A DNA stretch of 63,944 bases, filler included, from Octopus bimaculoides (taxonomy: Eukaryota): the NCBI RefSeq assembly GCF_001194135.2. It is 5 parts of 4 records of this genome, joined end to end, with 100 filler letters (N's around TTAATTAATTAA, not from the genome) between each part and the next. Parts side by side here need not be neighbours in the genome. Positions count along the whole stretch, not along the records: positions 1 to 12,432 come from NC_068986.1; positions 12,533 to 39,989 come from NC_068989.1; 3 more parts are not named here. One strand, 5' to 3'. A program made the position numbers and the translations under genes. The notes beneath the pieces were generated by a model. It saw only the letters and a list, made by a program, of their open reading frames with translations, was not told the origin of the DNA and did not search any database. Below, piece after piece: positions 411-28,753 of the stretch (the stretch's first letter is position 1; every line of letters begins with the position of its first letter).

Positions 411-476
411 ATTAATAGCCGATGAGAATGTTTCGTAACGCTTCGCTCTGACATTCGAAACTCCGGGTACTATAAT
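411..476 (+). ncRNA. Minimal type I hammerhead-ribozyme-like motif (variant core CCGAUGA)
   Basis: Stem I ATAG(415-418 region)/CTAT(470-473), extendable to about 7 bp with one bulge; core CCGATGA 419-425; stem II GAATGT 426-431/ACATTC 451-456; GAAA 457-460; near-palindromic stem III CTCCGGG; UA cleavage doublet 468-469. Folded by eye. Confidence 0.6.
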
Positions 477-565
477 GACAACCATTTATGATTGTTCTAA
501 ATTATAACATGCATAAATAATCTTCTATTTTACTAATATTGATGTCACATTCTTTTGTTGTCACA

Positions 566-738
566 TATTATTATTATTATTATTATTATTATTATTATTA
601 TTATTATTATTATTATTATTATTATTATTATTATTATTATTATTATCCTCCTCCTCCTCATCGTCCTCGTCTTCCTCGTCCTCCTGGTCCTCGTCCTCCT
701 CCCCGTCGTCCTCCTCCTCCTACTCCTCCTCCTCCTCC
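566..738. repeat. (ATT)n microsatellite running into a (CCT)/(CGT) tract
   Basis: Directly visible. Confidence 0.95.
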
Positions 739-916
739 GTATAGACGTTGCGCAGTATACATTATCGCGAGGTTGTCGATTGAAGATATTGTGACTACCG
801 GGGGTTTGTAGTGTTTGTCAAGTCGCAGCAAGGACCTCTGACAGAAAGTAGTTTACGCAATATGCGTGCACTTCCAAGTAATGCCGACTTTTGCAATACA
901 TCTAGATTGCAATTAC
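739..916 (-). mobile_element. 5'-truncated 3' end of an R4/Dong-like RLE LINE
   Basis: Minus strand reads LQKSALLGSARILRKLL, matching the LQKxALLGTAHILRK C-terminal motif seen in the copy at 39752-39976. Triplet repeats lie on both sides. Confidence 0.65.
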
Positions 917-2650
917 TATTATTATTATTATTATTATTATTATTATTATTATTATTATTATTATTATTATTATTATTACTATCATTATCATTATCATCAT
1001 CATCATCATATATATACATAGATACATACACATATATATATACATGCGTATATATGTATGTATGTATGTATGTATCTGTATATTTTTGTATATTTGCCTA
1101 CGTATGTATTTTTGTATGCTTGTATCTACCTACATATCTATCTATAGATCTATCTATCTATCTACCTGNNNNNNNNNNNNNNNNNNNNNNNNNNNNNNNN
1201 NNNNNNNNNNNNNNNNNNNNNNNNNNNNNNNNNNNNNNNNNNNNNNNNNNNNNNNNNNNNNNNNNNNNNNNNNNNNNNNNNNNNNNNNNNNNNNNNNNNN
1301 NNNNNNNNNNNNNNNNNNNNNNNNNNNNNNNNNNNNNNNNNNNNNNNNNNNNNNNNNNNNNNNNNNNNNNNNNNNNNNNNNNNNNNNNNNNNNNNNNNNN
1401 NNNNNNNNNNNNNNNNNNNNNNNNNNNNNNNNNNNNNNNNNNNNNNNNNNNNNNNNNNNNNNNNNNNNNNNNNNNNNNNNNNNNNNNNNNNNNNNNNNNN
1501 NNNNNNNNNNNNNNNNNNNNNNNNNNNNNNNNNNNNNNNNNNNNNNNNNNNNNNNNNNNNNNNNNNNNNNNNNNNNNNNNNNNNNNNNNNNNNNNNNNNN
1601 NNNNNNNNNNNNNNNNNNNNNNNNNNNNNNNNNNNNNNNNNNNNNNNNNNNNNNNNNNNNNNNNNNAAGCTCTACTTTGTAATTTGTCCATTTTCTGTAT
1701 TTAGCCCTGTGTGGCTATAATAAAAAGATATCTATCTATCTGTCTATCTATTTATCTGTCTGTTTGTTTGTCTGTCTGTCTGTCTGTCTGTCTATCTATC
1801 TGTCTAGCGCGAAGGTCATGGCTAGAACACATTTCCACGTGAAACTTTTCGTTCATGACTGAATAATGGGACCAAACGACACCAGACTTTCGAGCGCCAT
1901 CTGCATAATCATCATCATCATCATCATCATCATCATCATCATCATCATCATCATCATCACTTTTCCTGCAGACAGGGATAATGTTGATGTCGAAAATGAG
2001 AATCAATAACATTCTTCTCGTTATTATGATGATCTTATTAGTGATGATCATGACGATGAAGATGATAATGATGGTGATGATAATGATAAATGACCTGATG
2101 AAGTAACAGGCAGTGACTTCGATGGCTTTTGATCTCAGGTGTTTGGATGTGTTAATGTATACATTTTCTTTTGGTGTCAACGTCGGGGGAAGAGCAAATA
2201 TTCTGCTCAATATAAAAGATTAGCTCGACAGATGTTTGACCGTAACCAGCTAAGCGTGGTTTTAGTGAACGACGATAAGCGCTTCTCTGATTACGAGCAG
2301 AAGTAGCGGAAGATCATCATAGCCATGTGTTGAGAGGGATTCTTTCGGGTGTGAATAACTCATATCAGGAAACATGATGCTTTGTTTATCATTTTTAAGC
2401 AAGCTTAATTCAGGGACCTATTGAACGGGATGGGCTACTTGACCGTAGGAAAATCCTAATTGGGCATCACCTGCAAGGTCATGCGTTGTTTATTTTGATA
2501 TGAGATCACCATATCGCGCACATATGTTTGCGATGCATGTACCTGGTGTACCCTTATCAGACGGGTATATTGTGCTTCGTGTGTTTGTAACCTAGCGTCA
2601 GTTTGATGTCGTCTGCCGCTCTCTCACTCAATAATAGTAAAAAATATTAA

Positions 2651-2832
2651 TGGTTTCAAATTTTTTCATAAGGATAGCCATTTTAGGGAGGGGACTAGTA
2701 GATTACATAACCCCCAGTGTTCAACTGGTTAATTATATTATCGAACCCAAAAGGATGAAAGGCAAAGACCTCGGCAGAATTTGAACTCAGAACGTAGCGA
2801 CGGCGTGCTAACGATTATGTCAGCTCATCGCC
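2651..2832 (-). mobile_element. tRNA-headed SINE family A, internally deleted
   Basis: Reverse complement matches GGCG..AGCTG.CA..ATCGTTAGCACGCCG...GTTCTGAGTTCAAATTC..CCGAGGTC, repeated many times in this window. Confidence 0.85.
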
Positions 2833-26237: not shown

Positions 26238-26416
26238 TAATGATAATTTATTAAGCAACCAGAAGGTGGATTTGGTCTTAATTTTGTACAACGGTCGTTT
26301 TGACCCATCTTGGTACTGATCCTAAGTAACAGTAGCAGGATGGGTCGAAACGACCGTTGTACAAAATAAAGATTAATACAAAATCCATCTTCTGGTTACT
26401 TAAGAAATTATCATTA
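26238..26416. repeat. Fold-back / MITE-like inverted repeat (about 180 bp)
   Basis: TAATGATAATTT..AACCAGAAG.TGGATTT and TTTTGTACAACGGTCGTTT.GACCCATC are mirrored by GATGGGTCGAAACGACCGTTGTACAAAA and AAATCCA.CTTCTGGTT..AAATTATCATTA. Confidence 0.9.
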
Positions 26417-28577
26417 TGTATATATAGATATATATATATATATATATATANNNNNNNNNNNNNNNNNNNNNNNNNNNNNNNNNNNNNNNNNNNNNNNNNN
26501 NNNNNNNNNNNNNNNNNNNNNNNNNNNNNNNNNNNNNNNNNNNNNNNNNNNNNNNNNNNNNNNNNNNNNNNNNNNNNNNNNNNNNNNNNNNNNNNNNNNN
26601 NNNNNNNNNNNNNNNNNNNNNNNNNNNNNNNNNNNNNNNNNNNNNNNNNNNNNNNNNNNNNNNNNNNNNNNNNNNNNNNNNNNNNNNNNNNNNNNNNNNN
26701 NNNNNNNNNNNNNNNNNNNNNNNNNNNNNNNNNNNNNNNNNNNNNNNNNNNNNNNNNNNNNNNNNNNNNNNNNNNNNNNNNNNNNNNNNNNNNNNNNNNN
26801 NNNNNNNNNNNNNNNNNNNNNNNNNNNNNNNNNNNNNNNNNNNNNNNNNNNNNNNNNNNNNNNNNNNNNNNNNNNNNNNNNNNNNNNNNNNNNNNNNNNN
26901 NNNNNNNNNNNNNNNNNNNNNNNNNNNNNNNNNNNNNNNNNNNNNNNNNNNNNNNNNNNNNNNNNNNNNNNNNNNNNNNNNNNNNNNNNNNNNNNNNNNN
27001 NNNNNNNNNNNNNNNNNNNNNNNNNNNNNNNNNNNNNNNNNNNNNNNNNNNNNNNNNNNNNNNNNNNNNNNNNNNNNNNNNNNNNNNNNNNNNNNNNNNN
27101 NNNNNNNNNNNNNNNNNNNNNNNNNNNNNNNNNNNNNNNNNNNNNNNNNNNNNNNNNNNNNNNNNNNNNNNNNNNNNNNNNNNNNNNNNNNNNNNNNNNN
27201 NNNNNNNNNNNNNNNNNNNNNNNNNNNNNNNNNNNNNNNNNNNNNNTGTGTGTGTGTGTGTGTGTGTGTGTGTGTGTGTGTGTGTGTGTGTGTGTGTGTG
27301 TGTTTCTGATACATATATTCTCAGTCAACGATAACTTTATCCTTCATGCCATATTAAATACTCGGTTCGTTTTCCCACGCTTATTATATAATATTACTGT
27401 TTAAAACTATGAAATTATAAAGCATTATATTTGTATAAACACTACATGAATAAATATAGTTCACAGTAACATCAATAATAATGTCACCGGGTACATGTGT
27501 CCTCAACAATTATATTATGAATTATGTCATTAAGTAGATTTATTCTTAACAAATACTGCACATATCCTTTCTCTTCTGTATCAGTAACAAAAAAAAATTG
27601 TGAATGTAAACGTACAAATCAACCATTTAGAATTATTGCTCTGAACTGCGTTGTTTAACTTCAACTTATTTCTGTTAATTCATTTGTTCTAAAAATATAT
27701 AATTCACCAATATAGCTTACAATATCCAATTCCTTCTAACCACGGATTCCGTTGGCCGTTTCTACTCTACAAGATGTTGTTAATCATCTCAGATGCGGCA
27801 CAAAGAGAACAAAAAGAGAGGATTTTTTTAGAAATATATAAAAGATCAATAATCACCCTTCGATCGTTTCTGCATTGAATTTACCAGCTTTGAATTATTT
27901 TCTGTAGAGATATTTCCGGATTTAGCGCGCCAAAACTAAGACTTTTGAATATTACTCTTTATAATTAATAGAACCCCGTGCACATGTTTTCATTTGTTGG
28001 AGACAACTAGCACGAGGTTCTGTTGGATTATAATCGTTATGGCAGTCTGTACTGAGGAGAAACAGATACTTTCGTTAAGAAAGTGTTGATTGTGAAACCA
28101 TGGTCTACAGATAACCTAGGTATTTATAATTTTCACTAGTCTCGCCCATCTGTTTTCGCTTCGTTGAATTTTCTTTGAGAATTTTTAAGTGATCTTCTTC
28201 TAGCACATTAGCAGTTCATTTAGTGGTCTCTTTTATATATACATATACTATAATCCTTTTGAGATCTCAGAAAAAATTTTCTGAATTTCCTGATTCTTTT
28301 AATGTGCGGGTTTCCTGGTATTAACTTGATATTAATTAATATCAATTTTTTACCCTATGTATATATGTATATATATAAGGTTAAGGAGGGTATTGGATTT
28401 AATCAAACCCAAAGATACAGGTAATACCGAGTAAGTGCTGTATACCGGCTAGTTATGCTCCAATCGTTGTATAAACATGATTGGGGATTATAAGTCGTGT
28501 ATTAGCGTGTGTATGTATAAATAGAGAAAAGGATAAAGAGAACAATGGTAAAGTTAGAAATATATTTTATGGATAGA

Positions 28578-28626
28578 GTCTTACAGCTGTTTCAGGGAAG
28601 ATCCAATACATCCCTTCATCGGAGAC
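28578..28626 (-). ncRNA. Mirror copy of the 28705-28753 hammerhead-like motif
   Basis: Consequence of the perfect palindrome. Confidence 0.6.
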
Positions 28627-28704
28627 AGAAATAGTAGAGGAATCGATTATTATATCTATAACTCTCCGCTTATAGATATAATAATCGATTCCTCTACTAT
28701 TTCT

Positions 28705-28753
28705 GTCTCCGATGAAGGGATGTATTGGATCTTCCCTGAAACAGCTGTAAGAC
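28705..28753 (+). ncRNA. Minimal type I hammerhead-like motif (core CCGAUGA)
   Basis: GTCT/AGAC stem I; CCGATGA 28709-15; AGGGA/TCCCT stem II; GAAA 28738-41; palindromic CAGCTG; UA 28748-49. Confidence 0.65.

Follow-up and report, generated by a model that had tools for sequence, protein, structure and literature searches.

Several short non-coding repeats in the genome of Octopus bimaculoides carry what look like minimal hammerhead ribozymes, and the question is whether these motifs are genuine and to what kind of mobile element they belong. They lie in a stretch of 63,944 nucleotides joined from five parts of assembly GCF_001194135.2 (hereafter the window). The hammerhead class itself is already known: the architecture of the pseudo-LTR (pLTR) hammerheads of Penelope-like elements (PLEs), the heterogeneity of families within one genome, solitary copies and opposite-strand pairs, the latter 100-700 bp apart, were described in 2014 (Cervera and De la Pena, PMC4209133). 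What differs here is the presence of core variants in PLE-type motifs. As argued below, the motifs are probably 3′-terminal remnants, each a pseudo-LTR hammerhead with its tail, of at least four microsatellite-targeting PLE families, of which the one checked in sequencing reads mostly has C at core position 4 (C4).

Hammerhead motifs and their families

All sites named in the initial annotation were found where it placed them, and its grouping of these sites into three families holds: homology between the copies at 19917 and 28705 extends across some 290 nt, with a score of 158.6 vs 104 ± 9 (maximum 136) in 300 shuffles. Its inventory correctly separated unrelated families but missed a further family, E, and a third copy of family B. 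We label the families A (411-476), B (the copies at 24989, 19271 and 24020), C (28578 and 28705, with the diverged copy D at 19917) and E (28046).

Family A is a single copy in the window (411..476, plus strand) with the core CCGAUGA at 419-425, a U4C change. Its 7-bp stem II (426-456) is followed by GAAA at 457-460, stem III is the near-palindrome CUCCGGG, and stem I consists of 4 bp, a bulge and 3 bp; cleavage is predicted after 469, and a 96-nt tail leads to a (TAT)n run. Family B is represented by a plus-strand copy at 24989..25025, with the core CUGUUGA (24994-25000; A6U), an extra nucleotide 9b, a 4-bp stem II, stem III ACGU and a 5-bp stem I; it is predicted to be cleaved after 25020 and reaches (TA)n after a 95-nt tail. 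A decayed minus-strand copy (19271..19315, core 19306-19300), 76% homologous to it over 124 nt, carries changes at G5 and G12 as well as a U at position 6, and its tail to (TA)n is 94 nt long. The third copy, also on the minus strand (23897..24020, core 24005-23999), has C at position 6, has lost GAAA and stem III through a 15-nt deletion and ends at a (CA)n run 94 nt on. A6 is absent from 3/3 copies, replaced by a pyrimidine, and all three end 94-95 nt past the cleavage position.

The two family C hammerheads are one locus, both lying inside a 175-nt inverted repeat of 100% identity. The left arm (28578..28626, minus strand) has the core CCGAUGA (28622-28616; U4C) with predicted cleavage after 28582, and the right arm (28705..28753, plus strand) is its mirror; stem II is 5 bp, stem I 4 bp and stem III the perfect palindrome ACAGCUGU. 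The element body (28378..28669, minus strand) is about 290 nt long and ends at (TA)n 204 nt past the predicted cleavage site. The diverged relative D (19917..19972, plus strand), in an element spanning about 19875-20193 and ending at (TA)n, has a canonical core (19921-19927) and an unpaired stem II foot. Family E (28046..28111, plus strand) also has a canonical core (28052-28058), with predicted cleavage after 28105, a 6-bp stem I, a long stem II and the perfectly palindromic stem III ACCAUGGU, and reaches (TA)n after a 128-nt tail.

The canonical core CUGANGA...GAAA is thus limited to D and E, A and C having U4C and B a pyrimidine at position 6, and the hammerheads are therefore classed as a variant of the minimal type I form of PLEs. 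As had been proposed, some of the cores are non-standard, in B and C as traits of the families and not through decay alone, and stem III is always tiny and self-complementary (B, C and E) or nearly so (A and D). The type I topology, with a U16.1-H17 cleavage site and a core flanked by stems I and II, is present at six sites in five independent loci.

A strict canonical descriptor found 0 sites in the window. Two relaxed descriptors, both fixed after the sites had been inspected, found four sites against 0.14 in shuffled sequence (three were reached in 0/200 shuffles) and six against 0.31 ± 0.54 (five were reached in 0/200), so that the motif frequency exceeds that of shuffled sequence. The six include the canonical-core site of family E at 28046-28111. 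Among the annotated sites, the one at 19917 is accepted only when the descriptor leaves some slack, and 19271-19315 fits none, its GAAA and core being damaged. No hammerhead model was among the 150 Rfam matches listed of 196 for the window or in further sets of 19 and 7, the matches obtained being chance ones of the microRNA-hairpin type. Several other candidates were discarded. The family C stem III motif recurs exactly at 46953-46966 and partially at 37995-38012, in both places without the other parts of the hammerhead; two extra matches of the loosest descriptor, at 62873 and 63506, lie in low-complexity DNA; and weak upstream similarities among A, B and D reflect pyrimidine-rich flanks common to them and not homology.

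In folding predictions, the dimer of C forms a double hammerhead whose stem III has 8 bp, those of A and B do not fold cleanly, and the monomers of all three families fold no better than shuffles, whereas E has z -2.73; the best predicted fold of B has its core paired. Stem I shows one double change between C and D, from C-G to U-A. Stem II of family C contains a candidate change from G-C to A-U (shares 26%/33% and 14%/16%), for which linkage on single copies is not visible.

3′ ends and insertion context

All six core-bearing loci end at a (TA)n or (TAT)n run 94-234 nt downstream. An AT microsatellite lies within 235 nt, a threshold picked after the data were seen, on the 3′ side of 6/6 of these loci and on the 5′ side of 1/6, against a background rate of 0.20-0.27 per site; when CA repeats are counted too, a run lies near the 5′ side in 3/7 loci. 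With that post hoc threshold, the motifs share the bias of Neptune and Naiad PLEs for AT-rich or microsatellite DNA, and they also show the fixed 3′ end, 5′ truncation and, in family C, the inverted pLTR typical of PLEs. The family C locus is a perfect 175-nt inverted repeat (28487..28844, arms 28487-28661 and 28670-28844) that runs into an assembly gap and folds back at a native hairpin of 6 bp (28656-28661 paired to 28670-28675). Since the 8-nt loop belongs to the ordinary sequence of family C, reads that span it are no proof of fold-back, and the window's own junction gains no confirmation from the reads. A microsatellite bias and an adjacent inverted 5′-truncated copy are known for PLEs (PMC8557442). 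Neptune-type and Naiad PLEs resemble the present families in their (TA)n 3′ ends, strong 5′ truncation, adjacent inverted copy and the trouble that they cause for short-read assemblies (Craig et al., 2021, PMC8557442), whereas Naiads lack canonical hammerheads. When eight short family motifs were compared with the supplement of that study, six were absent and two had single matches in unrelated context.

A Pfam scan of 282 stop-free stretches of at least 45 aa in the window found no PLE reverse transcriptase (RT) or GIY-YIG domain, in agreement with the earlier remark that no coding partner is visible, and beside truncated copies such an ORF is expected to be missing. Since no PLE protein was found, we infer PLE membership from RNA anatomy and insertion context. 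A reading frame runs across the family C hammerhead (28639-28761, stop after). It has no relative among longer proteins (five candidates, none scored) and its four protein matches are unrelated repetitive proteins, so that a coding role is unsupported.

Family C in sequencing reads

The core state was checked in reads for family C only, which is a very high-copy repeat, with 1408 and 1685 contigs from reads of two organisms. C4 is its majority core state. Of 134 differences, the 40 with the best support do not include position 4, and letters private to the window's copy stand at 90-100% in the difference rows; a minority of U4 copies may exist, because only these best 40 are visible and the ranking rule is unstated. 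Of the 30 listed DNA-variable places, none falls in the 26 positions that make up the core and stems I and III (p about 0.04; the test is borderline and contigs are weighted by depth) and seven fall in stem II and its loop. The base adjoining GAAA is A in 65-79% of the DNA depth, which gives an A-A mismatch at the stem II foot.

Opposite-strand joints occur in two and six contigs of the two organisms (eight in total). On the 3′ side, the read depth has its edge at a repeat skipped in read matching. No go-back joint is listed for the family; in the between-letters listing, two rows go back a short way, one of them backed by 2 RNA reads. No clear back-joint indicating circular RNA was seen in 1905 family C RNA reads (about 6% of two runs), and a search of sequencing runs listed no RNA run as carrying the stretch, rows of small share being left out of the analysis. 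Patterns of families C and A had 0 matches in metagenome contigs, and that of C had 0 in viral contigs. In 976 and 929 RNA reads, ends did not pile up where cleavage is predicted, and likewise no pile-up has been seen for an active PLE (PMC11167929).

Comparison with known hammerheads

As far as the sequence goes, the architecture matches the consensus published for PLEs, down to nucleotide 9b and the palindromic stem III. The present motifs are like the minimal hammerheads of metazoan PLEs (PMC4209133) in being type I with a short stem I, nucleotide 9b, a palindromic stem III and a U-rich 5′ flank, and in forming several unrelated families per genome with mostly solitary copies. The 56 motifs of the supplement hold precedents for A10.1-U11.1 and for a near-identical stem III; the stem III of D. 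willistoni has an AGCU insert, and M. japonicus shows A10.1-U11.1 in the absence of 9b. The cores differ: those 56 motifs all have U4 and A6, both demanded by the descriptor, and the sole core variant reported is U3-A8, whereas here C4 is found in A and mostly in C, and pyrimidine-6 in B. We found no report of U4C in PLEs in a literature whose coverage was incomplete, so an earlier description is possible.

The same core substitutions, U4C and A6C, occur in hammerheads of a viroid and of phages (Perreault et al., 2011, PMC3088659), where U4C is weaker in vitro and yet supported viroid infectivity, and a CYGANGA descriptor has been used (PMC13481778). Those variants have stable stems and tertiary contacts, whereas the change found here affects a weak, dimer-dependent motif that belongs to an animal repeat of high copy number. 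Among phage contigs, C4 was seen in 18 stretches bearing the same motif, U4 in at least 126 and a purine in 0, and 15/18 C4 and 107/126 U4 loci passed a loose topology check that had no shuffle control.

Origin of the repeats and function of the core

By analogy with studied PLEs, a tandem element would be transcribed, and two hammerheads would pair via the palindromic stem III and cut slowly, probably aided by the element's protein. An RT/GIY-YIG protein would then nick AT-rich repeat DNA and begin to copy the RNA at a set position, 95-235 nt past the ribozyme; this copying would mostly stop early and at times fold back, leaving solitary or inverted short ends. The hammerhead copies in the window are probably inert, each being single or facing an opposite-strand copy, and several being damaged. 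C4 is likely a tolerated variant, predicted to slow self-cutting rather than abolish it. We tentatively propose, without favouring it, that selection maintains the C4 hammerhead of the abundant family as a dimeric ribozyme that works, slowly and with the help of protein, while other families tolerate the loss of A6.

A plausible alternative, held at somewhat below even chances, is that the C4 and A6-less cores no longer work and that a master copy was amplified with its ribozyme inactive, because retrotransposition does not need cleavage. This concerns function and is compatible with an origin from truncated PLEs. Inactivating the hammerhead of an active PLE left insertion in vitro unaffected (PMC11167929), Naiads thrive without canonical hammerheads, U4C is considerably less active in vitro and A6C proceeds at <0.1 per min (PMC3088659), and U4 is present in the diverged relative D. 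However, the U4 of D could have arisen from C4 by CpG decay, the variation among subfamilies of both organisms spares the core as well as stems I and III, the phage control replaces U4 by C only and never by a purine, and the unrelated family A bears the same change.

The initial annotation had inferred a set of short non-autonomous elements, which we regard as unlikely in the form of dedicated elements of 150-300 nt, either SINE-like and PLE-mobilised or solo retrozyme monomers, spreading via short or circular RNA. No ORF adjoins any copy, such PLE derivatives exist (PMC8557442), family C depth at the 5′ end of the stretch is about 30 times lower than at the hammerhead, and the lengths match retrozyme monomers, solo monomers derived from PLE pLTRs having been reported (10.64898/2026.07.22.740005). 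Non-LTR retrozymes are likewise non-coding, a few hundred nucleotides long and equipped with a type I hammerhead (Cervera and De la Pena, 2020, PMC7229834; Li et al., 2026, preprint), but they consist of tandem units, their hammerheads are mostly canonical and their RNA is circular, and neither tandems nor circles were seen here. The window holds no head-to-tail tandem of hammerhead units, so the retrozyme definition does not apply, and no listed go-back joint supports one in family C; at the family's loose ends, its sequence continues upstream in several subfamilies. Moreover, retrozyme hammerheads are canonical with loop-loop contacts, and minimal ones are assigned to PLEs (PMC7229834). The 5′-truncated ends of ordinary PLEs fit at least as well, because of the fixed 3′ ends at microsatellites, the variable 5′ sides and the inverted junctions.

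Another class of microsatellite-associated retroelement, for example R4/Dong-type or RTE-related, is improbable. Fragments elsewhere in the window (7937-8218 and 39752-40033), which we take to be R4/Dong-like and for which Pfam gave no convincing match, end at (TAA)n runs, and one frequent RNA loose end beside family C resembles a common octopus SINE/RTE tail. Yet these fragments have no hammerhead match, reports of minimal hammerheads with a palindrome come from PLEs and Terminons, and inverted 5′ copies are a PLE trait. Chance motifs in AT-rich, repeat-rich sequence, to which the post hoc loosening of descriptors and the lack of an Rfam hammerhead match would point, are already largely refuted and can be given hardly any weight in view of six sites against 0.31 expected (0/200 shuffles), conservation at the family level and the common 3′ context.

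Implications

Abundant families escape searches fixed on CUGANGA. If the abundant family does keep a working C4 hammerhead and other families tolerate the loss of A6, such descriptors miss hammerheads with C4 or without A6, PLE hammerheads are undercounted, and some PLE lineages regarded as hammerhead-less may bear variant cores. PLE hammerheads cleave poorly and proved dispensable for insertion in vitro. A high-copy family in which most copies carry a weakening change at one core position, while the other core positions and the dimer palindrome have been kept, offers a natural test of which is selected: cleavage, dimer formation or protein binding.

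Hammerhead Motifs and Their Families

The window is gappy, AT-rich animal DNA, rich in microsatellites, and all the hammerhead sites named in the initial annotation were found in it. A strict canonical descriptor gave 0 sites over the window, and an Rfam search of it gave no hammerhead among the matches listed. When a change at core position 4 or 6 was allowed, as the initial annotation had proposed, 3 sites were obtained against 0.12 (0 of 100 shuffles). With one core change permitted along with nucleotide 9b, and with stem III palindromic, the count was 4 against 0.14 expected from shuffles; loosening the base of stem II raised it to 6 against 0.31, with 0 of 200 shuffles reaching 5, the relaxation having been chosen once the sites were known. 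In the window the motifs are more frequent than in shuffled sequence; an equal frequency had been named beforehand as refuting. The six sites lie at 419, 19921, 24994, 28052, 28709, and 28622, the last two being mirror images within one locus.

Family A (411–476, plus strand) has no relative elsewhere in the window. Family B has three copies (24989–25025, plus; 19271–19315 and 23897–24020, minus), in which position 6 is U, U, and C, in none A, with U, C, and A at position 7; the 19271 copy fails every descriptor and was identified by homology alone. Family C (28705–28753, plus; mirror 28578–28626, minus) and its diverged relative D (19917–19972, plus) are homologous across ~290 nt, differ in stem I by one double change, and carry C and U, respectively, at position 4. 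The three groups proposed initially therefore hold, with 19917 joined to 28705, but a fourth, family E (28046–28111, plus), had been overlooked. Its descriptor match at 28052 has a canonical core, a 6-bp stem I, and an 8-nt palindrome, and is the sole site folding clearly better than shuffles (z −2.73). It lies ~510 nt from the left-arm motif of family C on the opposite strand, and no resemblance to the other hammerhead families in the window was found. A candidate at 46953–46966 (plus), an exact 14-nt match to GAAA and stem III of family C, was rejected, having no recognizable core upstream.

Family C in Reads and Possible Tolerance of C4

At a likeness of at least 80%, a single 401-nt family C stretch matched 1408 contigs from one organism and 1685 from another, together with 976 and 929 RNA reads. 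The family therefore has a very high copy number and is transcribed somewhere. The difference rows considered, 40 of 134, cover 39 places, each reaching at least 33% in one run, and in these rows letters private to the window's copy stand at 90–100%. Position 4 (28621) is absent from the 40, so that C4 is the majority state of the family; U4 is possible as a minority within the remaining 94. The non-standard cores claimed initially are thus borne out, by C4 here and by a position 6 pyrimidine in 3/3 family B copies.

None of the 30 DNA-variable places listed falls in the 26 core, stem I, and stem III positions (hypergeometric p ~0.04), and 7 of the 30 fall in stem II and its loop. In one stem II pair both sides change in similar shares, though linkage is not visible. 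The base preceding GAAA is A in 65–79% of DNA depth, and the resulting A-A mismatch counts against a clean fold. RNA ends pile up at no place over the stretch in the 976 and 929 RNA reads. A stop-free frame (28639–28761, plus) crosses the hammerhead, with several subfamily differences at third positions; a protein search found no relatives of it.

Four A-to-G changes occur in 28–47% of RNA reads, with DNA nearly free of them, and A-to-G RNA changes cluster at 28562–28608. The pattern is suggestive of A-to-I editing, on the antisense strand, of double-stranded family C RNA. A few highly expressed copies could equally account for these changes with no editing, as five further changes that are high in RNA and low in DNA run G-to-A or C-to-T.

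In the literature on Penelope-like elements (PLEs) compared here, no report of a C4 core or of a pyrimidine at position 6 was found; Lunse et al. 2017, said by its title to concern PLE hammerhead variants, lay outside the comparison. In the 2014 alignment, U4 and A6 are given for 56/56 PLE motifs (PMC4209133), and the hammerhead descriptor of a 2026 survey reads CYGANGA (PMC13481778). U4C is described as considerably lowering activity in vitro while still allowing viroid infectivity, and an A6C hammerhead as having low activity (Perreault et al., PMC3088659). Among phage contigs searched with one fixed stem II pattern, C4 occurred in 18 stretches, U4 in at least 126, and a purine in 0. C4 would be expected to slow the ribozyme.

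Flanking Sequences and Coding Content

In the sense 3′ direction, the first AT microsatellite is reached 96 nt past the predicted cleavage site in A, 95 and 94 nt past it in two B copies, 204 nt in C, 234 nt in D, and 128 nt in E; the third B copy also ends at 94 nt, at a (CA)n run. An AT microsatellite within 235 nt is found on the 3′ side in 6/6 and on the 5′ side in 1/6, against a background of 0.20–0.27 per site. When CA repeats are included, the background rises to 0.32–0.41 and the 5′ side is also close in 3/7 loci, which makes this test weaker than it first appears.

Family C lies within a perfect 175-nt inverted repeat reaching into an assembly gap. Its junction may be genomic or else a library or assembly fold-back: 0 of 16 read pieces listed span it, and other opposite-strand joints of family C are seen in 2 contigs from one of the two organisms and 6 from the other. 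The 8-nt loop is ordinary family C sequence, and loose read ends place the turn at a native 6-bp hairpin.

That no coding partner is visible in the window was confirmed, an RT or GIY-YIG domain occurring in 0 of 282 stop-free stretches of at least 45 aa. Two short frames (7937–8218, plus; 39752–40033, minus) appear to resemble R4/Dong-type retrotransposons at their C-terminal endonuclease end; Pfam gave no convincing match for either. The window also holds an intronless cluster of secretin-family (7tm_2) GPCR-like ORFs on the plus strand (29418–31478; gap-split 12535–14533; fragment 14862–15760), found by ORF and domain search, with a cysteine-rich N-terminal part and paralogues ~80% alike in the 7TM region. 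Two abundant dispersed SINE-like families of ~150–260 nt, one at 7156–7374, 11149–11329, 33580–33838, 34319–34530, 38994–39592, 41314–41535, and 60883–61021 and the other at 18087–18249, 43653–43814, 54483–54724, and 63744–63896, match none of the hammerhead descriptors.

Probable Relation to Penelope-Like Elements

The initial annotation had linked the motifs to PLE termini and retrozymes, a reading that is partly borne out. Anatomy, families, and 3′ context favor the PLE type; the tandem arrangement by which retrozymes are recognized is lacking in the window's motifs (PMC7229834; 10.64898/2026.07.22.740005). Octopus repeats annotated in 2026 include Penelope-like families, and the passages compared make no mention of ribozymes (PMC13282606). 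PLE membership of the window's motifs is likely.

Minimal PLE hammerheads are described as cleaving weakly, as dimers (PMC4209133; PMC6765202). The window's motifs are predicted to work alike, and a double-hammerhead dimer is predicted for family C. An active PLE nicks AT-rich DNA and begins reverse transcription inside its own RNA, its hammerhead being protein-dependent and dispensable for insertion in vitro (PMC11167929). PLE insertions are reported as 5′-truncated, often with an adjacent inverted copy, and as preferring microsatellites in some clades (PMC8557442). The hammerhead loci are likely truncated ends of PLEs, probably Neptune-like, whose hammerheads are probably inert as single copies.
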